Origin: Macrostomum lignano
Taxonomy: Eukaryota
Assembly (NCBI GenBank): GCA_002269645.1
Contig: NIVC01001707.1
Span: forward strand, 1-36,945
Direction of reading: 5' to 3'
Length of the DNA stretch: 36,945 nt
The notes beneath the pieces are model-generated. The model was not told the DNA's origin. It saw only the letters and a program-made list of their open reading frames with translations, and ran no database searches. Positions 13,718-33,332 of this stretch are shown here, one piece after another. Within the stretch, counting starts at the first letter, position 1. The number at the start of each line of letters is the position of its first letter. The translations under genes and the position numbers were made by a program.

Positions 13718-14636
13718 GTTAGGGGAACGGGGCTGTGATGGGGCTGAGTCACAATAACTGCATTGTGTGCGACTGTTTGACGTGAATCCCAGCTTGCGCT
13801 AATGCAAGGATAAACAAAAAGTTCGTGCGTTTTCCCCGACATTCTGGCACTTTCCGACACTACCTGCTGATCTTCCTCAGCTGGTGCAGGTGGCGCACCA
13901 CTAGCCGCATAGGGTGCGAGTTCTGGTGGACGGATCTGCTTCAAAAGCCTCTTGCAGAGCGTCCGAGTACACGGTTGAAGGTTGGCTAAAATTTTGTACC
14001 ACTTCTGTGCTGCTCTGTCCTGAAGAGCTTCCAGTAGTGTCACAGAATAGCAAAATATTGTCGCCGAAAAACGTCACTCGGTTCGGAAAAATATGCTCTT
14101 TTGAGTGGGGCGTCACTTGTTTATGAATGCTGTACATGCGAGAAATGACAGGCCCATGAAAATGTGATCAGGAAAAGCGCACGAACTTTTGGTTCATCTT
14201 TGTATTTGGTAATTGAGTGCTTTAATCCGCCTGGATGCGGGATTCCTCTTGATTAAAATTGTCTGATCAAGCATAAAAAATTTCCTAACTGTTCCTTCTT
14301 TTTTAACCAACTTGTCGCCTACTAACAGCAGAGCAGCGCGTTGATTCCGGTTGGCCGGCCATTTATGGCGCTGATTTTTGTATTTGCGTCCGTCTGGAAA
14401 TGAATGCGCTTGAATTCGATTTTAACCACTCAATGATCAGTTTGCCTTTAAAATGGTTAACCCGAATTTTGATTGGATGCTTAATTTAGAACCAGCCACT
14501 CGTTCCGATTGGCTCACCAAAAATAGCTTTTCCTTGACATTTCCCCCAATTTAAAAAGCGCGCGTGCCGTTGCAGTCAATTCCAACTGGCGATTCACTTT
14601 CGATGCCCTCTCCCCGCTTCCTCTCCTGTGTTGCAG

Positions 14637-19671: not shown

Positions 19672-19905
19672 TTAGGATTTAGGGCAGTGAGTTAGAATTT
19701 AGGTCATCAGGGCTAGATTTTAGATCAGGGTTAGAATTTAGGTCAGGGTTGGAATTTATGTCAGGGTTAGACTTTAGGTCAGGGTTAGAATTTAGGTCAG
19801 GGTTAGATTTTAGGTCAGGATTAAAATTTAGGTCAGGGTTGGAATTATGTCAGGATTAGAGTTTATTTGAGGGTTAGAATTTGTCAGGGTTAGAAGTTAT
19901 GGGTT
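19672..19905. repeat. 18-bp minisatellite (TCAGGGTTAGAATTTAGG)n, ~12 degenerate copies, telomere-like words
   Basis: Direct inspection; repeated GGGTTAG/TTAGG. Confidence 0.85.
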
Positions 19906-21206: not shown

Positions 21207-21584
21207 GTTTTCGCCGAAAAATACACTACGGAGATAAGAAGTCTTCTTAAAAAAAAAAGTCTTCTTATTTTTTCGTTAGGAGGAGGATATCAAAAATGGA
21301 TGGCACAGCTCGACTCTTTGGTTTTATGAATCTGTTGTATCATCTCTGTTACACATTTTGTTTCGAGCCGTGCTACTTTTATGATTTTTAGGTACAGGAA
21401 ATGTACCTAGTAGAATCCTAATTTTCAAAATGAAAACCTTTATAAATATCAATAGGGCTTTAAGAAAGGCACAACATATCAAAAGATGAACATTGGTTCT
21501 GCCTCCTATCGAAAGCAATAACAATTTTTGCACTGAAAAAATGAAAACTTCTTATCTCTCCGTAGTGTATTTTTCGGCGAAAAC
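21207..21584. mobile_element. MITE-like element defined by ~36-bp terminal inverted repeats
   Basis: GTTTTCGCCGAAAAATACACTACGGAGATAAGAAGT (21207-21242) versus reverse complement at 21547-21584, differing only by a GA; AT-rich non-coding interior; no TSD identified. Confidence 0.6.
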
Positions 21585-22437: not shown

Positions 22438-22800
22438 GCAATGGCCGTCGCCGGGATCCATCGCCCGGCCCCGGCGCCGCCAGCCGAGTCGCCAACGATT
22501 ATTCCACCGACGCCGCCTCCAGGCAGCTCGTCCGTGCGTCGGCCAGCTGCTGCTGGTGCCTCCGCTGCCGCAAAGTCGACCTACAGCAGTCCGGGCGGCA
22601 AGCGTCGGCAGTTGCCACCGACGCCGCCAGGGGCGCGGGCGCCGCCGCCGATTTTTATTCCGCAGCCTCAACAGCAGCAGCAGCAGCCGCAGCAGCCGAT
22701 GCCGTCTGTGCTGCCTCACACAATGCCGAACGGCTTTGCGGGCAATGGGCCCGTCAGGGGTTTGCAGCGCGGCATTCAGAGGCAGGACAAGGTGAAATAG
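22438..22800 (+). CDS. Cav1: Cav1 exon with (L/M)AVAG motif; ends at stop 22798-22800 or at donor 22792
   Basis: ttttag|GCA ATG GCC GTC GCC GGG; QSQ|AMAVAG resembles Cav1.3 QQQIMAVAG; P/Q-rich ORF; AAG|gtgaaa precedes the stop. Confidence 0.8.
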   Translation, partial: AMAVAGIHRPAPAPPAESPTIIPPTPPPGSSSVRRPAAAGASAAAKSTYSSPGGKRRQLPPTPPGARAPPPIFIPQPQQQQQQPQQPMPSVLPHTMPNGFAGNGPVRGLQRGIQRQDKVK

Positions 22801-23390
22801 CTTAGCTTACACCTGTAATATATGTAGATTTACATGTACGCATGAAGAAAGTTGACTATACCAAATCGAAACCAATTCTCATTCCAAGAAGACTTAGGTA
22901 GCTTTAGCTACGGTACCGGAGCGTAGTTCTGGCGTAAGAGGCTCGATTCCAAGTCCATGCAGTCACATAAGTCGGGGCTACATTGGAATCTCAGACTCAA
23001 GGCACAGTGAAGTGTACATGTCTAACGATAATTAAAGTTAGGACCGCTGTTACACTCCTGTGTGTTAGTGTGTGCTTGCGCGTATAACTGCGTACATGTA
23101 CGTATCTGCGCGCTTGTGTGCCTGCCTGCTCAGGGGAGTCGGCGAAATGGGCAGTAATGTCTCTCGCCGGTTGTGTGACAATGTCGCTTTTAAGTGCGCC
23201 AGGGTGCACAAAGCCCTCTGTCTCTAAAAAATAGCTACGTTTCCATGTCCCAAGTCAGATAGAAGTTATTTTAAACCTCGGTACAGAACGCATATTCAAA
23301 GTCCGGTTCAGCCTTCCAATCACTAGACACTGTGATGGACTCTCCTCAGTAGAAGGCATGAGGGGGCTTCTGGGACAAAATTTTTCACCT

Positions 23391-23760
23391 CCTCCATAAT
23401 CCCATTAAATCCATCCATATTATCCCTGACAGAATCAGAAAAAAAGGGGGGTCGCACCTGCTCACAAAACATCGTCCATAATCCCATTAAATCCATCCAT
23501 ATTATCCCCGACAGAATCAGAAAAAAAGGGGGGTCGCACTCGCTCACAAAACGTCCTCCATAATCCCATTAAATCCATCCATATTATCCTTGACAGAATA
23601 AGAAAAAAAGGGGGGTCGCACCCGCTCACAAAACGTCCTCCATAATCCCATTAAATCTATCTATATTATCCCCGACAGAATCTTGAAAAAGGGGAGGGGT
23701 TGCACTTGATCCGAAAACTTTAATCCCATTAAATCCATCCATATTATGACTGACAGAATA
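23391..23760. repeat. 82-bp tandem repeat, ~4.5 copies
   Basis: Units start at 23391, 23473, 23555, 23637 (CCTCCATAATCCCATTAAATCCATCC...A7G6TCGCAC...); 4th and 5th copies degenerate. Confidence 0.93.
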
Positions 23761-24084
23761 TGGGAATATGGGTCCACTGACACCTGTTATGCTCACTGAC
23801 ACCGACATCCACCCATAGCATGTTCGAAACAATCAGAAAATAATCTGCATTCTTCTCCCCACATTCAATCCGCAACGTGAAACCAGATCCCTAAGACTTT
23901 AAATCATCAGCGCAGGGTCCTTACCCTTTGAAAAAAAATAAATAATTTTATTATTCATTAGTAAGAATTATATATTTATTAACGGTTGCACAACTGATAG
24001 GATATGTATTAACTATTACAAGATTATCAAAAATGGTAGAAAAAACAGACACTATGTAGGATCTGCGTTAGAATTCTTCAACAA

Positions 24085-25207
24085 CATACAGAGCCAGCCT
24101 AGCGTTCCTTTGAGCCAGCAGCTAGATTCTCTAACGCCGTTAGAATTTTCTATGTGAAAATTTGGTGTGCCCAAGCTTATCATGCGGGAAGCTTTTCACA
24201 TAGAAAATTCTAACGGCGTTAGAAAATTTCTACCCCCCTCTATTTAACCATACAGAGCCAGCCTAGCGTTCCTTTGAGCCAGCAGCTAGATTCTCTAACG
24301 CCGTTAGAATTTTCTATGTGAAAATTTGGTGTGCCCAAGCTTATCATGCGGGAAGCTTTTCACATAGAAAATTCTAACGGCGTTAGAAAATTTCTACCCC
24401 CCTCTATTTAACCATACAGAGCCAGCCTAGCGTTCCTTTGAGCCAGCAGCTAGATTCTCTAACGCGTTAGAATTTTCTATGTGAAAATTTGGTGTGCCCA
24501 AGCTTATCTTGCGGGAAACTTTTCACATAGAAAATTCTAACGGCGTTAGAAAATTTCTACCCCCCTCTATTTAACCATACAGAGCCAACCTAGCGTTCCT
24601 TTGAGCCAGCAGCTAGATTCTCTAACGCGTTAGAATTTTCTATGTGAAAATTTGGTGTGCCCAAGCTTATCATGCGGGAAGCTTTTCACATAGAAAACTC
24701 TAACGGCGTTAGAAAATTTCTACCCCCCTCTATTTAACCATACAGAGCCAGCCTAGCGTTCCTTTGAGCCAGCAGCTAGATTCTCTAACGCCGTTAGAAT
24801 TTTCTATGTGAAAATTTGGTGTGCCCAAGCTTATCATGCGGGAAGCTTTTCACATAGAAAATTCTAACGGCGTTAGAAAATTTCTACCCCCCTCTATTTA
24901 ACCATACAGAGCCAGCCTAGCGTTCCTTTGAGCCAGCAGCTAGATTCTCTAACGCGTTAGAATTTTCTATGTGAAAATTTGGTGTGCCCAAGCTTATCTT
25001 GCGGGAAACTTTTCACATAGAAAATTCTAACGGCGTTAGAAAATTTCTACCCCCCTCTATTTAACCATACTGAGCCAACCTAGCGTTCCTTTGAGCCAGC
25101 AGCTAGATTCTCTAACGCGTTAGAATTTTCTATGTGAAAATTTGGTGTGCCCAAGCTTATCTTGCGGGAAACTTTTCACATAGAAATTTCTAACAGCGTT
25201 AGAATTT
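24085..25207. repeat. 163/164-bp tandem array (~7 copies), each unit with a 30-bp inverted repeat
   Basis: Units start at 24085, 24249, 24413, 24576, 24739, 24903, 25066; unit 1 arms 24131-24160 and 24193-24222 are exact reverse complements. Confidence 0.96.
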
Positions 25208-25349
25208 AAAACCCACCGACTGAGTTGCACACAGTACTGAGAAAATTGCTACCCTCCTCTACTTAACCAATCGGCTGTCTCCAGTTGTTGAATCTTCTCT
25301 TTGAAATTCTAACGCGTTAGAAAAATTCTAAATGAACTGAATTTAAAAA

Positions 25350-26027
25350 TTACACAACTTTCCACGCAGGATCACTGGCCAAAATTTCTTCTAGAAACTT
25401 CATCTTAGAGTTTAGTTCCCTAATTGGCATTGACACCTGTCTCAAGCCTGGGTAGGTAACAGACAGTTTGTACAGACGAATGTACAAATAGCCAGTTGAT
25501 TCCTGGATGTTTACATTTTTACACAAATGGGCGAACCGCACTTTAACATCTTGTCCAAAGTTCTCGGTGCGATAAGTTTTTAGCAGCCGCCCAACTTCGA
25601 GAATCCAATGTAGACCTCCAATTTGAGTCTTCTTGTATTTTGCTAGAGCCGCCTTCACCCTAGTGATGATGTTCTGCTCGCCAGATGGAAGCTGGTGATC
25701 AACAGCGTCCATCAGCTGATCAGCTAGTGTTACGCGGGATGCGTACAACTTCTCCCTGAATATCTGCAGATCCGCCATCTTCTTCTGCAGAGCCGCCGCC
25801 TTCTTCTCTTCGCTACTCACATTTTGCGCTTCATTCGCTGCGGCGATATCATCAGGGGCCATGGCGAAAAACTCGATTGGTAGGTCGCCAGTTTCTAGAC
25901 CGAAAAAGGTGGTTAGTTCCTCTCTTCTTCTTGCTTGTAGATGTGACGGAATATCCTGTAAAACTCTTTGTAGCATGGCACAAAGGCCTTGCTTATCTGT
26001 CAAATGAAGATTCCACTCGACTTCCAT
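25350..26027 (-). CDS. Hypothetical 225-aa protein; coiled-coil plus possible DUF3102-like helical domain
   Basis: Intact ORF with aaaATG context; segment LEVGRLLKTYR...ESTGYLYIRLYK resembles the DUF3102 pattern by eye only. Confidence 0.75.
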   Translation of the reverse strand: MEVEWNLHLTDKQGLCAMLQRVLQDIPSHLQARRREELTTFFGLETGDLPIEFFAMAPDDIAAANEAQNVSSEEKKAAALQKKMADLQIFREKLYASRVTLADQLMDAVDHQLPSGEQNIITRVKAALAKYKKTQIGGLHWILEVGRLLKTYRTENFGQDVKVRFAHLCKNVNIQESTGYLYIRLYKLSVTYPGLRQVSMPIRELNSKMKFLEEILASDPAWKVV

Positions 26028-26870
26028 TTTCTAAATCTTCTTGTCTTCTAATCTTCTAGTTTGGCGGACAATTTCTTAGATCACTTTCAGCGTGCTTAAG
26101 TTCCTGCAGTCGTCGTTTCTCAGTCGCAGTTGATGGCATATGCGGGGAGAATCAACCCGAGTGTTTCTGCATTTGCTTAAATACAGCTATACAGCTAGAA
26201 AATTCCAGAAAATTCTTAGACTGTACAATCTTGGAGTCAAGCAGGGAAAAAATAATCGATATAGCTCAGTGAACGATAGAACATGAGGCGTGTGAATGTG
26301 AGGGTGCTTTAACTAGCTTCCGAGCGATCGATTCCCTCCACCCGCTTGAAGTCCCCATACATTTCCTTGGTTGATTGGGTTTGTCAAAGCGGAAAGGAAA
26401 GCACGCGTGGAACTTGTACATTCGCAAAATCGATTAGAGGGCTGCGCTCCCTCAGCAAATAGCAGTTACCCCACCCTCCCTTCTGCTTCTACTTTTCAAA
26501 ATGCAGCTGTTGCGCTTGGTTAGGGCTGAGAAGAATAGTTAACCCTTCCCGACTCAAGCGCCTCTCTCTACCCCGCCCCATATCTTCATACCGTAGAGAC
26601 CAACTAGGCGGGCCACATTCCGAGGCCAAATCGGCGGGCCGAGGCCAACTCGGCGGGCCGACTGGCCTCGCAATTTGGCCAATAATCAATATCAATCAAG
26701 GAGGGAATCTCAACATACACAGTCCATGCATGCTAATGGCGGCGAAGCGGTTGACTTTTTATTTTCTGCTCTTAGCTCTCTGGAGAATGAGAATCTCTCT
26801 TGTGCGCAACTCTTTAGGGAATAAAAAACTGTACTTACTCAAATCCACACTTGCTCATGCCCTTCCCGAT

Positions 26871-27371
26871 TCAAGCGCCCCTTTCTACCCCCAGCTCTTT
26901 CAGCAGTCTTCCCAATTTCTTGTTAGGAGCGCACAAAATAAACCCTACTCCCAAGCCTCCGCCCTCTCTTTCCGCACACCCGCCCTCTCTCCCCAAACAC
27001 CCACCCTCGGCGCCGACCCCCAACCCCAATCTTGTCTTACTAAAAATAACAGCTTTAACTAGCTTCCGAGCGATCGACTCACGAAATCCGCTTGAAGCCC
27101 CTATATTGTCTAGTCTCTTAAGCATTTCTTTGTCCCAGCGATTCTTCTCCTCAGGAAAATCTCTATATTTAACATCGTGCCACATGCAGACAGAGTCTAG
27201 CTCATTCACAGGCTCATGCCCAGGATTTGGGTTGTTGTTTCCATCCAGCTGTATTTCAAGAGGATTCAAAGGCCCGCAATATTTATAGCCGGGAAGTGTC
27301 CAGCCTTTGTTTGGATGAGGAAGCTTTTCTATCAGTCCATGTGAATCTATCTTACCACCAGAGCGTTGCAT
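26871..27371 (-). CDS. Parvovirus-type phospholipase A2 (PLA2X-like), 166 aa
   Basis: LPGYKYCGPLN (Ca-binding loop), ELDSVCMWHDVKY (HD dyad), downstream WD; likely start is the ATG at 27371 rather than 27614. Confidence 0.88.
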   Translation of the reverse strand: MQRSGGKIDSHGLIEKLPHPNKGWTLPGYKYCGPLNPLEIQLDGNNNPNPGHEPVNELDSVCMWHDVKYRDFPEEKNRWDKEMLKRLDNIGASSGFRESIARKLVKAVIFSKTRLGLGVGAEGGCLGREGGCAEREGGGLGVGFILCAPNKKLGRLLKELGVERGA

Positions 27372-27401
27372 TATTTTATTTAAAATTTTCTTTTTAAATA
27401 A
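27372..27401. promoter_or_regulatory. 30-bp bidirectional AT-rich intergenic region between divergent PLA2 and integrase
   Basis: TTATTTAAAA (27376-27385) and TTTTAAATAA (27392-27401) form a perfect 10-bp inverted repeat; TATTTAA on each strand 25-29 nt before each ATG. Confidence 0.5.
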
Positions 27402-28430
27402 ATGACAGATCAGAAACTTAAAAAACTCTACTACAGCGACAAAGGATTCTTTGTAGGCAAAAATGCCGTTAGTAAACTCATGGAGCTGAGTAAGGAGCCA
27501 AAAGCTACAGTAGAAAAATGGCTCTCTAAGCAGGCTGTCTTTCAAGTCTATTTCCCACCAGTAAAATTTGAAAGGCCCCATTTCAGTATTTATAAACCTA
27601 ATGAAGCGCACCAAGCAGATCTTTTGTTTCTCCCCAACGACTCAGGCTACAAGTATGCTCTTACAATTATTGACATTGCTTCCAGATATAAGGAAGCTCG
27701 CCCACTCAAGACGAAGAAGTCAGAGGTTGTTGCCAGCGCACTGCAAGATATTTATAAAAACTCTCCGCTCACATACCCCCAAATCTTTATGACCGACCCG
27801 GGTAAGGAATTCATGGGTGTAGTGAAATCCCTTATGGAAAAGAAAAACACAGAGATTCGCTATGGCAGAACAAACTTGCACAGAGACCAGGCTTTTGTGG
27901 AAAGATTCAATCTAACTCTAGCCAAGAGACTATTCACTAAGCAGACAGCGCAAGAACTCAAACTGAGTGCGGGGCAGTACTATACCAAGTGGACAGAAAG
28001 ACTCCCCACTGTTATAGAGCAACTGAACAATGAAGTCACACGCATGACTGGATTGAAACCATCCCATGCAATTAAACAAGACACTGTCGAACTTAAGGCA
28101 TCTCATAGAACAGACAACAACACGACAACCCCACACAACACAAAACACACCTCGAACTACCCTAAGCTTCCAGGAGTTGAATCACCATACATACTGACAA
28201 ACTCTGAGTTTCTACGCTTTTTATATCTACCTGGAGAGCTAGAGAAAGACACCAAAAGAAGAGCTACAGATCCATACTTCAGCCTTGATGTACATAAAAT
28301 AGACAGACATTTTACCTCCGACTCCGGTGACTATTACTTTTTATCTCAAGCCTTTAACCCTAAATCCCCCACACGGTCATTCACTAGAGCTGAACTCCTA
28401 GTGATACCAGCTGACACGGAAATTAATTAA
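27402..28430 (+). CDS. int: Retroviral-like (rve, DDE) integrase of Polinton type, 342 aa
   Basis: HQADLLFL (D), MTDPGKEF (D), FVERFNLTL (E); C-terminal GELE...RRATDPYFS...RAELLVIP; intact ORF. Confidence 0.95.
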   Translation: MTDQKLKKLYYSDKGFFVGKNAVSKLMELSKEPKATVEKWLSKQAVFQVYFPPVKFERPHFSIYKPNEAHQADLLFLPNDSGYKYALTIIDIASRYKEARPLKTKKSEVVASALQDIYKNSPLTYPQIFMTDPGKEFMGVVKSLMEKKNTEIRYGRTNLHRDQAFVERFNLTLAKRLFTKQTAQELKLSAGQYYTKWTERLPTVIEQLNNEVTRMTGLKPSHAIKQDTVELKASHRTDNNTTTPHNTKHTSNYPKLPGVESPYILTNSEFLRFLYLPGELEKDTKRRATDPYFSLDVHKIDRHFTSDSGDYYFLSQAFNPKSPTRSFTRAELLVIPADTEIN

Positions 28431-28446
28431 AATATTAAAATAAAAA

Positions 28447-28902
28447 ATGACAAAGATTGAAACCAGAACCATCAATAAACTCAATAAAATCATTGAATCA
28501 AAGAAACCAGGTCTTATATCAATTAAAGGTATCAAAGTTAAGGTTGATCCCACACAGCAAATAGTTGAGTGTAATGAACAAAGACACAGCATCACAGATG
28601 AAAAGTCAGGAGGAATCCTACCATTAGCAGCTCTTATTCCGATCATTGCAGGCGCTGTAAGTGCCGCAGGTGGTGTAGCTGGAGGTGTAGCAACTGCTGT
28701 TAAAGCTGGGAATGATAGAGCTCACCAGCTAGAATTGCAAAAGATTGCAAGAGACAAAGGTATAACAATTAAGGCAGGAGAGGGCTGCCCGGATTTTGAT
28801 GATTGTGATGATTGTGAGCATAAAAATTCTGTAAGCAAGTCTGACATTGTCAAAGCCATCATGACACTGCACAATGCTGGGTTTACAATAATGCGGATAT
28901 GA
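28447..28902 (+). CDS. Putative virion core/membrane protein with adenovirus pX (mu precursor)-like motif
   Basis: GGILPLAALIPIIAGAVSAAGGVAGGVATAV resembles the adenovirus pX C-terminus GGILPLLIPLIAAAIGAVPGIASVA. Confidence 0.65.
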   Translation: MTKIETRTINKLNKIIESKKPGLISIKGIKVKVDPTQQIVECNEQRHSITDEKSGGILPLAALIPIIAGAVSAAGGVAGGVATAVKAGNDRAHQLELQKIARDKGITIKAGEGCPDFDDCDDCEHKNSVSKSDIVKAIMTLHNAGFTIMRI

Positions 28903-29025
28903 TGAGGTTTAAAACCCCACTTTATCCAGCTTCATAAACCTAACACTACTGATAGGATGTAGAAACAGTTCAACTTTTCTATCAGGGTGGTCACCCTCAA
29001 AATTTTTTTTATATTTTCGAGAAAA

Positions 29026-32000
29026 ATGCCAAAAGCCAATCCAGCAAGAGATTTAGTCAACAAATATTTTTCAAAAGGCGTCTCATTTCAAGACAAAAGT
29101 AATTCACTAAGAGAAGCATGCAAACAAAAGTTCAACACCGACCCTGGTCACCTGGGAAGCTATGAAAAACAGTTGGAAATCATCAATCAATTAGAATCAA
29201 ACCAGTATGCGCCTATAAAAAATTCTGCAAAGGAACACCAAGAGAGGAGTCGCAACTTAGTTAACAAATATGAAACTCTCACTGGTGAAAAAGCAAAGTA
29301 CCCACAAAATAAGCAGGAACAAGAGAAATTAGAGCAATTAATCCATTTAAAAGAGTCGGAGCTTGCCACTGAAGAGATTAATTTTGCACAGACGAAGTTT
29401 ACAGAACATTACATAGAGTACACAATCCCAATAAACGGCACCAACGGTACCACCGCAAACATCTACGACTATAAAGACAGCATCCAATCAGTTGTTGATC
29501 ACACACTCAAAACACGCAAGACTTTAAACTACAGATATCATTCAAGATTGCGTTTTATATGCCTGCAAAACCCACTGAGCATCTCGAGTATTACATGACA
29601 ACAAAGGCAAAGCCATTCACCCCAACAGACACACTGGATCCTTTCCTTCAAGATGTCAATAAGAAAATTGAAGCGTTTACATCCAGAGGTTCCGGATGGG
29701 TCGTGGGAGGGATTCAAAGAGCGACTGTCATGGTCATGAAATATGACCCACTTAAAGCCTCCTCTTATATAGAGCTCCCGCATAAGCTAGCCGGTAAAAA
29801 AGCTTGCATAAATGTTAAAAATAAAGACAATTGCTGTGCTCTATGGGCAGTTCTTTCTGCACTTTTTAGTGTACCTCACCACCCCGAAAGAACCTCAAAT
29901 TATCAAAATTATTTCAACTACTATCTCATCGAATGCGAAAAGAAGGGAATCAGGTTTGACAAAGGAGGCTTGGCGATCTCTCAGATCCCAAAGCTAGAAG
30001 AAGTGTTTAATAACAAAATTAGAATCACAGTCTTTGAGTGGAGTGAAAAAACTGAGAAAGTTCAACCGGTCAGATGTAGCAAAGACGTTTTAGATCCGAG
30101 GGGAAAAGGCGGACTGAAGTGGATCTTCTAGTGATTGGTAATTTACTAGAGGAGGCTCACTATGTTTGGATTAAAGATCTTTCAAGACTCATTCACAAGC
30201 AGTTGAATAATCATCACGAGGCTGTTGCCATCTGCCGCTTGTGCCTTAAGCATTACAGTGGACCTGAACGCTTTGAAAAGCTAACAGAGCATGAATTATC
30301 ATGCGAGGATCACCCGACAAACTGCTCTCTTCCTTCAGCTGAAGAGAAGTATCTCCGGTTTAAGAACTATCACAAGATGGAGAAGCTCCCATTTGTTGTA
30401 TATGCTGATTTCGAATGCTCAATCGTGCCAGAAACTCAAAAACAACTCCAACTCAAAAACAAACTCCAACTCAAAAACAAACTCAAACTCAAAAACATAT
30501 CCCCAATTCAGTAGCATATGCCTTTATTAATACAAAAGGACTTGTTGAGTATAATTATTTCTTTGGAGAGCAGTGTGTGGAGCAGTTTATTGCCAGAATG
30601 TTAGAGTTGCAAAAAGTGATTAGCACCCTTCAACCTGTTCCAATAATGATGACTGAGGAGGATGAAAGCAATTTCCTATCAGCAACTCATTGCCACATCT
30701 GCAGGAAACATTTAACTTGCACTAATATTAAAAACCCCACCGTTAGGGACCACTGCCACTATACTGGGAAATTTAGAGGTGCAGCGCATAACACCTGTAA
30801 TCTAAAGCTAAAATCGAACATTCATGATCTAACGATATTTTGTCACAACGCAAAGAACTATGACATGCATTTAATAGTTGAAAAAATCGGCATGATTCCA
30901 GACATACACCTTGATTGCATCGCAGAGAACAAGGAGAAGTTTAAGTGTGTTGATATTAAACAGGATAATTCGGGTACAGGTAAAATAAGACTGAAGGATT
31001 CATATCAATTTCTAGCTGCCAGTCTAGACGAACTAAGCAAGAATCTAAAAGATGAACAATGTACATATACAAAGATGTTTGCAAGTAAAATTAACAACAG
31101 TGATGAATCATTTAAACTTTTAAGAAAGAAAGGCTTCTACCCCTATGAAAATATTACTGGGTATCACGTATTTGAAGAAGGTTTACCACCACAGGAGAAG
31201 TTCTTTTCAAAGCTAACAGACTCTGGAATCTCTGACAAAGACTATGAGCACGCGAAGCATGTCTATAATTACTTTAATTGTCAAAACTTCTTCCAGTATC
31301 ACCTGCTTTACCTCTACACAGATGTGTTTCTGCTGGCTGATGTGTTTGAAACCTTCAGATACACCTGGTACACAGCATATGGCCTCGATCCAGCACATTA
31401 TGTGTCTCTGCCTGCCACTAGCTGGGAATCTTTGCTTAAAATGAAATGGGATCAAGATCCAGATTGGTACATTGAACTTCTTACAGACATTGACATGTAC
31501 AATTTTGTCGAATCGTCAAAGCGAGGGGGATCTCAATTTGCACAGTATGCAAAAGCAAACAATCCCTACATTGAATCTTACAATAAGGAGCAGCCCTCAA
31601 ACTACATTACTTACTTGGACGCTAATAATCTCTACGGGTGGGCGATGAGTCAAGATCTTCCAGTTAGAGATTTTCGATGGCTACCCTCATCAGAATTCAA
31701 ATGGGACTTTTCATTGGCTGCCATTTATGAGGTTGATGTTTACATTCCACCAGAGCTTCACGACTATTTCTCTGACTTTCCACCCTTCCCAGAGAACATC
31801 AAGTGCCCGAAAATAATCGAAACTCCCAATGATAATAATGGAACTTGGCACCTGTCAGGAACAGAAAAAGAACATACAGAGAAACTAACACAGAATCTAA
31901 ACAACAAGACACGTTACAAAATCCATTACAAACTGCTTCAGTATTTTATCTCACTTGGTTGCAGGGTCACCAAAGTTCACAGGGCTCTTACATTTACAGA

Positions 32001-32892
32001 GGAAGCGTGGATGAAACCCTACATTGATAAGAACACCCAGTTTAGGACCAAAGCAACCAACGACTTTGACAAGAACCTCTTTAAGTTGGCCAACAACTCT
32101 GTCTATGGCAAGACTCTTGAGAATGAGCGGAAAAGAACAAACCTGAAACTTGTTACCTCATCAGAGCCTGCTGTTATTCAGGCAAATATGTCAAAGCCAA
32201 CATTCAAAGAACTCCATATCTTTAATAGCTACTTAGGTGTGATCATATTTTACAAAACCAAGGTGACGCTGCGCAAGCCGATCTATACAGGTGTCACTGT
32301 TCTCGACGAATCAAAACGTCTGATGTACCAGTTCTTCTATGGCATGAAGCAGCAGTACAAGGATAAAATGAAACTCTTGTACACTGACACAGACAGTTTT
32401 ATTATGGACATTCAAACAGAAGACATTTATCAGGACATGCTGCAGCAAAAAGATTTGTTTGACTTGTCTGAGTATGATGAATCTTTGCAGGACACAGAAT
32501 GGCGATCAAGTGTTTGACGCCACTAACAAGAAAGTGATTGGGAAAATGAAGGACGAGATTGCTGGTGACATAATCACTGAATTCATTGGGTTGAGAGCAA
32601 AGTCCTATTTTGTAAAATGTGAGTCGTCAGACCCAATAAAAAATCAAAGGGAATTCCGAAACGTGTGGTTAGGAAGGAAATTAATGAAGCTGAATACAGA
32701 GACGCCTTGAATTGCAACAAAAAGACATCACATGAGTTCTCAAAGCTACAATCGAAAAACCATATTATTCACACAATTCAGCAAAAGAAGATTGGACTGT
32801 CAGGTGCAGATAACAAGAGATTCATTTTTGATGACAACATTAACAGTCTACCGTTCGGGCACTGGAGATTAGGTTTAGGAGGTGGAGGTTAG
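29026..32892 (+). CDS. polB: Protein-primed family B DNA polymerase with endonuclease VII-like insert; five frameshifts as assembled (~1290 aa if repaired)
   Basis: ExoI YADFEC, ExoII HNAKNYD, ExoIII TDVFLLADVFE, motif A YLDANNLYG, motif B KLANNSVYGK, motif C YTDTDS, KVIGKMKDE; CHIC...RDHCHYTGKFRGAAHNTCN insert; spans supplied ORFs 28987, 29559, 30119, 30415, 32459, 32665. Confidence 0.95.
30434..30498 (+). repeat. 18-bp coding repeat (ACTCAAAAACAAACTCCA)n in polB; first copy lacks one A
   Basis: Units at 30434 (17 bp), 30451, 30469, 30487 (partial); encodes TQKQTP. Confidence 0.85.
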
Positions 32893-32931: not shown

Positions 32932-33332
32932 ATGACGACAAATAACTTTCTTGAAGATTTGGCTAACGAACTGCAAATCCCAAACTTTAGAGGAATATTT
33001 ATGAGGGACACTCTGCCTGATTTTCCTCTAAGAAAGAATGCGGCATCATGAACTTTGACACTACCGATAAGCCAGGATCTCATTGGGTTTGCTGGGTGAT
33101 TGATCCCGATCGCAAGCACAAGTGTTATTACTTCGATAGCTATGGGACGGCAGTACCAGAAGAGCTAAGAAATTATATGAAGGGAAAAAATAATAAAAAA
33201 ATTTATCGCTCAGACTTTATTCTCCAAGGTCTTAGCAGTGATATTTGCGGTGAGCTGTGCATGACTGTTTTGTATGCAATGACCAAAACACGAAAGACCT
33301 ACAAGGAAATTCTTCGTACCTGTGTTTCATAG
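32932..33332 (+). CDS. pro: Adenain-like (C5) cysteine protease; one frameshift (133 aa if repaired)
   Basis: N-terminal FRGIFMRDTLP, then GSHWV (H), YFDSYG (D), Q...SDICG (Q/C); one added A at 33033-33035 joins the frames. Confidence 0.9.

Follow-up and report, generated by a model that had tools for sequence, protein, structure and literature searches.

What purpose, if any, is served by an array of inverted palindromes near the left end of a virus-like element in the genome of Macrostomum lignano? Polintons, common across animal genomes, code for viral components, but how their expression is controlled is poorly understood. The window analysed here, i.e. the whole stretch of 36,945 nt of contig NIVC01001707.1 (assembly GCA_002269645.1), carries such an array beside an intronless ORF of 225 codons. 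The first-pass annotation, made from the letters alone, had proposed a protein-bound cis element, an hr-like origin among others, or a set of hairpin RNAs.

The first 22.8 kb of the window are filled by a host voltage-gated calcium channel gene (Ca_chan_IQ, E 4.2e-09), the final open frame of which stops at nt 22800. Judged by gene content, the sequence from about 23.3 kb to the window end (nt 36945) is a Polinton of the Alpha adintovirus type, the defining features of which are described in PMC8502044. Within the window it measures 13.6 kb, and its right end lies beyond nt 36945. A Polinton setting had been proposed before, and it is borne out by PLA2-like, rve integrase, pX, pPolB and adenain-like domains. 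The PLA2-like ORF is of the parvovirus VP1 type (nt 26871–27371, open frame to 27581, minus strand; PF08398, E 1.9e-13). On the plus strand follow the open frame of the rve integrase (nt 27402–28430; PF00665, E 2.1e-08), an adenovirus pX (mu) domain protein (nt 28447–28902; PF05829, E 4.7e-07), the protein-primed DNA polymerase B with the domain pair pPolB + EndoVII, fragmented over several frames (nt 29026–32880; PF03175, E 2.6e-17), and an adenain-like cysteine protease with a broken start (nt 33021–33332; PF00770, E 0.0025, below the cut-off), which was also matched in four related loci. A fragmented, probable packaging ATPase lies on the minus strand (nt 35065–35601); the tested piece had no Pfam match, and its motifs, read by eye, are those that we take to be A32-like. 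With polymerase, protease and probable ATPase all fragmented, this copy of the Polinton is either decayed or mis-assembled.

Several smaller features accompany these genes. The PLA2-like and integrase genes diverge at nt 27371–27402, where a 30-nt spacer composed only of A and T bears TATTTAA on either strand; it is a putative minimal bidirectional promoter. The PLA2-like gene has its 3' part (nt 26860–27105) repeated in decayed form at nt 26300–26580, with a peptide in common (85–91% over 54 and 32 nt). A 21-bp repeat lies upstream of the ATPase (nt 35697–35796) and an 18-bp in-frame repeat within the polymerase region (nt 30433–30497). The host introns harbor two MITE-like inverted-repeat elements (nt 21207–21584, with 28-nt perfect arms, and nt 13801–14206, with 39-nt arms, 82%) and an 18-bp telomere-like tandem repeat of 12.6 copies (nt 19672–19899).

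The left end of the Polinton can be placed only approximately. A candidate, AGTAG on the plus strand (nt 23348–23352), has five of the six bases of the (AGT)2 end motif described in PMC8097293, where the terminal inverted repeats (TIRs) of vertebrate Mavericks range from 46 to 1,447 bp (TIR sizes and end motifs are also given in 10.1101/2023.08.22.554363); it is weak as an end, as about one such 5-mer is expected by chance. With the right end outside the window, it is also the one trace seen of a TIR, of AG-type ends or of a 6-bp target duplication. Just inside it is a second tandem array (nt 23390–23759; 4.6 copies of 82 bp), which has no sequence likeness to the main repeat unit and is probably, by inference, a subterminal repeat of the Polinton. 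Its period equals half of the 164-bp main unit and the mean spacing of the palindromes, the sequences being unlike. The DNA left of the main array is tied to the Polinton by a bipartite inverted motif, TGATAR-N23-YTATCA, which occurs at nt 23995–24029 and again between the pX and pPolB genes at nt 28950–28984. Two copies were found against 0.008 expected (500 shuffles), the motif having been picked after it was seen and then tested. It is a putative promoter or terminator element. Both copies resemble an inverted pair of GATA-like sites and are followed on the plus strand by an AAAAATG start context, which opens an 8-codon frame on the left and is the pPolB start on the right.

The main array (nt 24085–25204) comprises 6.9 head-to-tail units with a period of 163–164 bp and 98% matches, starting at nt 24085, 24249, 24413, 24576, 24739, 24903 and 25066. 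In each unit two palindromes form an inverted repeat of the arm-loop-arm kind, accompanied by two GAAnnTTC dimers and by a C-tract with a TATTTAA box behind it. Full units end with this C-tract and box, oriented back toward the 225-aa gene, and six of the seven end in CCCCCCTCTATTTAAC, so that the TATA-like motif reported between the hairpins is indeed there. Other parts of the original description needed correction. There are seven units, as stated, but four are 163 bp long or truncated, and the array does not reach nt 25322: unit 7 stops at about nt 25204, and nt 25205–25322 are non-repeated. The 30-bp perfect inverted repeat ascribed to every unit is a perfect stretch of 31 bp found only in units 1, 2 and 5; the longest perfect stem is 23 bp in units 3 and 6, 15 bp in unit 4 and 14 bp in unit 7. 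The loop is 32 nt long in all seven units, but is not constant, as two sequence variants differing at two positions are present (four vs three units). Fourteen copies of CTAACG(C/G)CGTTAG had been counted; 13 of the 14 fit CTAACG(0-2)CGTTAG exactly, while one arm carries a single change.

Units are 95–100% identical to each other, with units 1, 2 and 5 indistinguishable. Their types run A A B C A B D, giving a higher-order period of 490 bp, and unit 4 is a mosaic of the left part of unit 7 and the loop of unit 1. This pattern indicates unequal recombination and speaks against a pure assembly expansion, although three units are identical. The array is real, far outside what chance would give, and recently amplified.

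The recurring site is TCTAACG(n)CGTTAGA, present 14 times in the array at a mean spacing of about 82 bp (78–79 and 85 bp, even over unit borders); the flanks add one free copy and one half-site. Outside the array TCTAACG occurs three times in the immediate flanks and once elsewhere in the Polinton, while the 23,348 bp of host DNA contain a single copy. The flanking traces are a lone half-site directly left of the array (nt 24066–24073), the decayed end of an eighth unit with C-tract and TATA-like box (nt 25240–25269, plus strand, 90% identical), and a free, perfect 16-bp palindrome without a partner arm (nt 25307–25322), which had been noted correctly in the first pass. Since such unrepeated copies of palindrome and TATA-flank survive on both sides, the motif is older than the expansion. 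Four variants affect the stems. One deletes a central base of the left palindrome and is shared by four of the seven units; the other three are substitutions, a single one in unit 4 and a pair in unit 7. In none of the four does a change in the opposite arm restore pairing, and the commonest turns the left arm into a perfect 12-bp palindrome but bulges the hairpin. The half-sites are thus kept (TCTAACG is exact at 27 of 28 array positions) while the long hairpin is not (perfect in three of seven units), which supports binding at a short site. These observations suggest that what matters is the short, double-stranded palindrome rather than the long stem of an RNA, although the stem variants are so few and so recent that selection on the palindrome cannot be proven from them.

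A candidate for the binding protein is encoded next door. The 225-aa gene (nt 25350–26027, minus strand; M. lignano gene cluster Mlig026570) is oriented toward the array, and its stop codon lies 28 nt before the free palindrome. The protein cluster of its product has seven members, four of them named Macrostomum lignano, with six GenBank accessions and suffixes up to g18; the members occur on 5, 3, 2, 1, 1, 1 and 1 contigs, counts that need not represent independent insertions because the assembly is redundant. Copies elsewhere in M. lignano differ by single residues or a short deletion, so little that the family must be young. In PMC5730564 the assembly is described as repeat-rich and redundant and the gene models as derived from an RNA-seq-based annotation, so that some copies of the 225-aa gene are transcribed; the genome is a hidden polyploid (PMC12801592, PMC5730564). 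For six other Polinton proteins that were looked up, no exact sequences were present in the protein collection. No papers were found for Mlig026570 or Mlig018323, nor any match in the supplements of PMC12801592, PMC5730564 and PMC5816591.

Sequence searches said little about the protein. Among 1.84 billion representatives a single distant relative was recovered (224 aa, 31% identity), best conserved over residues 138–194, within the C-terminal domain, and a profile search added no further homolog. Pfam, PHROGs and PDB sequence searches returned nothing significant, and Foldseek with the predicted model gave no hit at E <= 0.001 against PDB or BFVD. A match to a DAXX domain in Pfam (E 0.049) was discarded as noise. 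One BFVD row (probability 0.89) is for a 107-aa phage protein; the ORF taken to be this protein, by length only, has weak helix-turn-helix matches in Pfam (E 0.009) and aligns over 19 columns with a probability of 0.2%, and so contributes next to nothing.

The AlphaFold2 model of the protein is all-helical and of low to moderate confidence (pLDDT 58.8). A structure search of 48,161 chains gave 17 matches with Z of at least 5, to the C-terminal half, led by Raf1 (Z 6.9) and including Spo0J (rank 2, Z 6.5, rmsd 3.0, 71 aligned), KorB (rank 12, Z 5.3, rmsd 2.5, 55 aligned) and ParB-parS (rank 13, Z 5.2, rmsd 3.3, 70 aligned). In a second structural comparison Spo0J ranked first of 502 (Z 7.0, rmsd 3.8, 86 aligned). 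All of these values lie below the caution level of Z 8 (13 for helical domains), and unrelated helical proteins score Z 5–6 against the same model. Folded alone, the C-terminal domain took another topology (pLDDT 52.1), with no ParB-type match in the best 50. Among Atlas look-alikes of residues 110–225, 12 of the 30 named are DUF3102 clusters (score 0.91), and one carries Plasmid_parti_N; 145 of 256 features are shared, whereas true members of a family typically share 170. A DUF3102-like pattern had been seen by eye in the protein before these comparisons. The C-terminal domain is a putative helix-turn-helix of the ParB/KorB/DUF3102-like type, predicted with Z below the reliable range.

The protein is also predicted to form a symmetric homodimer. 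The prediction scored 0.71 against 0.00 for the best control, with runs agreeing on at least 91% of contacts and a pLDDT of at least 74. In calibration, 21 of 30 microbial and 17 of 29 eukaryotic homodimers attained this mark, against none of the 23 and 30 monomers, respectively; among eukaryotic dimers without an older solved relative only one of seven passed, so that a pass may echo a known fold. The predicted interface (residues 4–43 and 117–157) largely spares the putative recognition helix (residues 176–191). A two-fold dimer with free recognition helices would suit a palindromic site, making the protein a candidate binder, and the earlier choice of this protein for binding assays gains support from the predicted homodimer and ParB-like domain. 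No structural match to the ParB CTPase domain was found for the N-terminal half, which is predicted to be all-helical, and absence from a hit list does not exclude such a domain; no ParA partner was present among the window ORFs scanned.

Upstream of the same gene lies a perfect heat-shock element (HSE) of four pentamers (nt 26197–26216; 1 found, 0.005 expected, 4 of 1000 Polinton shuffles), which was noticed first and tested afterwards. It is situated 13 nt upstream of a TATA-like box, TATTTAA (nt 26177–26183, minus strand), about 150 nt upstream of the start codon and the same heptamer as in the array units. A heat-shock promoter is recognised by at least three alternating nGAAn units upstream of a TATA box, and here there are four perfect units. 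The element fits the pattern by which HSEs were defined in the LTR elements of M. lignano; four LTR families are heat-induced there more than 250-fold, and mutating the HSE abolished the response in one (PMC12801592). The 23 kb of host sequence within the window contain no HSE. A three-unit HSE is found at nt 25388–25402, inside the 3' end of the 225-aa gene. In the heat table of PMC12801592, which uses other identifiers, one pPolB+EndoVII transcript is up by 2.8 log2 at very low counts (baseMean 4.4) and another pPolB transcript is down by 1.6 log2, neither of which can be assigned to the present family, and four other Polinton domains do not appear. The array itself shares the word AGAAAATTC with this promoter, yet it is not an HSE array, because its units hold only GAAnnTTC dimers and nt 24085–25204 contain no HSE trimer.

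The reading that we prefer, tentatively and without regarding it as probable, is that of an operator array, bound by the Polinton's own dimeric helix-turn-helix protein and serving transcription control under a heat-shock trigger; held at that same tentative level, it agrees with the protein-bound cis element of the first-pass annotation. The array would be a double-stranded-DNA binding platform of the Polinton, and its variant pattern suggests that an older region with few palindromes was recently amplified to seven units by unequal recombination. Host heat-shock factor would turn on the 225-aa gene via the four-unit HSE, and the product, a symmetric dimer with two predicted helix-turn-helix motifs, would bind both half-sites of each palindrome. 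About 15 such sites, some 82 bp apart, would be interleaved with TATA-like boxes directed back at the 225-aa gene. The likeliest use would be transcription control of the left end of the Polinton, including autoregulation, and not an origin, in the manner of baculovirus hr/IE1 or of the EBV family of repeats with EBNA1 as enhancers, or of a set of KorB operators; a second possible use is tethering or packaging of the excised linear genome.

Several observations weigh against an operator array. Rigid dimers usually tolerate one-base changes in the palindrome centre poorly, and here the centre varies by one base. The protein model is weak, as set out above, in its Z values, its pLDDT and the failure of the domain-only fold to reproduce the ParB-type match. 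The promoter of the 225-aa gene lacks a palindrome while the array lacks an HSE trimer, and TATTTAA is not enriched in the Polinton, being equally common there outside the array (5 in 12.5 kb) and in the host sequence (9 in 23.3 kb). Related loci are of no help either. A GTDB scan with a 29-sequence integrase alignment confirmed 14 of 100 stretches (41–56% identical, mostly short), while a scan with the integrase alone confirmed none of 45 candidate stretches. These 14 Polinton-type integrase loci (L001–L014), several with pPolB, protease and PLA2, lie in bacterial MAGs of GTDB and are probably mis-binned eukaryotic DNA. Neither the palindrome, nor the N23 motif, nor a homolog of the 225-aa protein occurs in any of the 14, most of which are short fragments, and one carries a single HSE trimer.

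The strongest competitor, though unlikely, is a tandem repeat that varies neutrally or nearly so. On this view a subterminal segment had a functional site or two, and its copy number, idle in itself, has grown by slippage or unequal crossing-over aided by the inverted repeat. The high identity and recombinant order of the units, with their 490-bp higher-order period, would be expected from such a process, as would the unrelated 82-bp array only 330 bp away, the occurrence of unrelated tandem repeats beside Polinton genes in two related loci (L001, with a 47-bp unit, and L004, with an 82-bp unit) and the decayed state of this copy. The 82-bp repeat of L004 lies 3' of the integrase. Harder to explain by idle expansion are the older, unrepeated palindrome and TATA-flank copies on both sides, and the even placement of palindromes at 78–85 bp across unit borders.

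A stronger form of the operator reading is also rather unlikely, namely a complete genetic switch in which a ParB-KorB-like helix-turn-helix dimer of plasmid or phage type, induced by heat-shock factor, would act on centromere- or oriP-like palindromes, with a hairpin-rich mRNA as a further part. If true, animal Polintons would have yielded their first pair of cis-element and cognate regulator serving latency, reactivation or the maintenance of an episome, and transgenesis and public heat-stress data exist for the host.

Somewhat less credible again is a structured RNA, in which either the 225-aa mRNA runs through the array to AATAAA at nt 23980 or 23952, or the TATA boxes fire rightward, and seven stems of 22–34 bp feed or saturate Dicer, or damp expression of the 225-aa gene. 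The folds are strong: unit 1 reaches -61.2 kcal/mol (z -7.5) and unit 3 a z of -7.0, values equalled by none of 200 shuffles, units on either strand fold at -41 to -56 kcal/mol, and the whole array forms helices of 31 bp (plus strand) and 34 bp (minus strand). Any inverted repeat folds, however, so that folding shows no RNA function. Two AATAAA signals (nt 23947–23980, minus strand) are the first downstream of the 225-aa stop codon, and no AATAAA or ATTAAA was found on the minus strand between that stop and nt 23980; the 225-aa mRNA may thus carry the array as a 1.4-kb 3' UTR with stems of up to 34 bp. The word CTATTTAA behind a C-rich tract was also seen, by eye, in one M. lignano LTR whose family is heat-induced. 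The hairpin RNA of the first pass thus keeps its folding (z about -7) and a possible read-through, but loses ground in that the variants break pairing, leaving a bulge or mismatch in four of seven units, and that a palindrome also stands without a partner arm. An intact VA-like Pol III RNA is excluded by the T4 runs in both stems and the lack of a box B. That candidate and a miRNA precursor were both rejected, with none of the four variants compensatory and Rfam giving only sub-threshold miRNA-like hairpin matches (25 bits vs 60 needed). A tRNA scan found none, and a scan for sigma-70 promoters (7 vs 6.3 expected) and terminators (0) is unsuited to a eukaryote. A hairpin role could coexist with a DNA role.

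We consider it improbable that the array is an enhancer or promoter for host factors, with Myb-type sites and the half-elements of heat-shock factor (GAAnnTTC) beside the TATA-like boxes. The array holds nine TAACGG/CCGTTA sites, which we take to be of the Myb type, and 13 GAAnnTTC dimers, and the word that it shares with the HSE of the 225-aa promoter fits this view. The commonest variant, however, ruins the left Myb site in four of seven units, a Myb site and a correctly spaced GAA/TTC are both missing from the free palindrome, and HSE trimers are lacking throughout the array.

An hr-like replication origin, as suggested in the first pass, or a packaging domain like the adenovirus A repeats, for a free linear genome, is very unlikely. 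The adenovirus packaging domain (A repeats) lies near the left genome end, as does the array here. Protein-primed polymerases start replication at the termini, and with a single internal locus, 0.7–1.9 kb from the likely end of an element that has such a polymerase, this leaves the case for an origin weak. AT-rich, repeated imperfect palindromes are indeed a property of hrs (PMC6669502), whereas those are dispersed and here there is one locus in the 13.6 kb within the window, although the part to the right of it could contain another. Least credible of all is that a MITE or satellite of the host was inserted in tandem, or that the assembly expanded the repeat: with TA on either side, the 88–94-bp arm-loop-arm unit looks like a very small MITE, and three units are identical in a repeat-rich, redundant assembly (PMC5730564), but the unit has no copy in the 23.3 kb of host DNA of the window, degenerate motif copies are woven into both flanks, and variants shared and recombined across units are not what mis-assembly produces.

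Whichever reading is favored, an array, a candidate dimeric binder and an HSE side by side provide a concrete and cheaply refutable hypothesis of regulation, for which public heat-stress RNA-seq (E-MTAB-14939) and about a dozen or more genomic copies offer comparison material. If the ParB-like assignment is true, a DNA-binding module of the bacterial plasmid type acts within a virus-like element of an animal; should it fail, the array is a variable repeat like many others. Among the literature matches listed, none showed a palindrome array of a Polinton together with its cognate regulator, and for these matches coverage of subscription papers and Repbase is thin, and no paper on Macrostomum Polintons among the best 30 of 242 matches. 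A possible precedent, a satellite within a Polinton of Tribolium, was looked for in the literature and not found. Terminal palindromes with a proposed role in replication priming are described in protist virophages and PLVs (10.64898/2026.07.28.741278), and polisuvirus maps mark short repeat arrays and palindromes (10.64898/2026.10.13.758929, PMC11296320).

Compared with known systems, the element resembles Polintons/Mavericks of the Alpha adintovirus type in its pPolB, rve, adenain-like, PLA2-like and pX domains, and tandem repeats are likewise present at L001 and L004. It differs from them in that PLA2 and pX are in separate genes, and in that the far edge of the array lies about 1.86 kb from the candidate end, past the TIR range of 46–1,447 bp (PMC8097293). 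Polinton particles have never been observed according to the same source, and a palindrome array beside a helix-turn-helix gene was not found in the accessible Polinton/Maverick literature. The baculovirus hrs, where a dimeric viral protein on two half-sites has been proposed (PMC6669502), are similar in having repeated imperfect palindromes (here 14 in the array and one free) in an AT-rich viral intergenic region. Here, however, the two palindromes of each pair are inverted to one another, no search showed the candidate binder to be IE1-like, and, as a single locus on a linear, protein-primed replicon, the array is not an hr. Adenovirus VA RNA has in common with the array that long stable stems are possible, but the latter comprises seven tandem copies, with internal T4 runs, no box B and no compensatory variation.

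In the EBV oriP family of repeats with EBNA1, and the KSHV TR with LANA, a palindrome array of a latent DNA virus is bound by a homodimer that the virus itself encodes, that continues to be made when its other genes are quiet, and that has enhancer and tethering roles. The present case is unlike these in that the element integrates, the candidate binder is predicted to be all-helical rather than a beta-barrel, and a chromatin hook was not identified in it. With ParB/Spo0J-parS and KorB-operator systems it shares clustered 16-bp palindromes by the gene and a predicted helical domain that superposes (Z 5.2–7.0); unlike the case in these, and in DUF3102/Plasmid_parti, no match to a CTPase domain was found in the candidate binder, no ParA among the window ORFs scanned and no match at the sequence level, and the array unit has no match among plasmids. 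Among HSE-bearing transposons (the M. lignano LTR families, ONSEN and Helitron1_CE), those of M. lignano have, as here, a canonical HSE directly upstream of a TATA-like box (PMC12801592). In Helitron1_CE the canonical HSE is within the repeat unit, where the array has dimers only, and in the present element the HSE stands before a single accessory gene of a DNA virus-like element.
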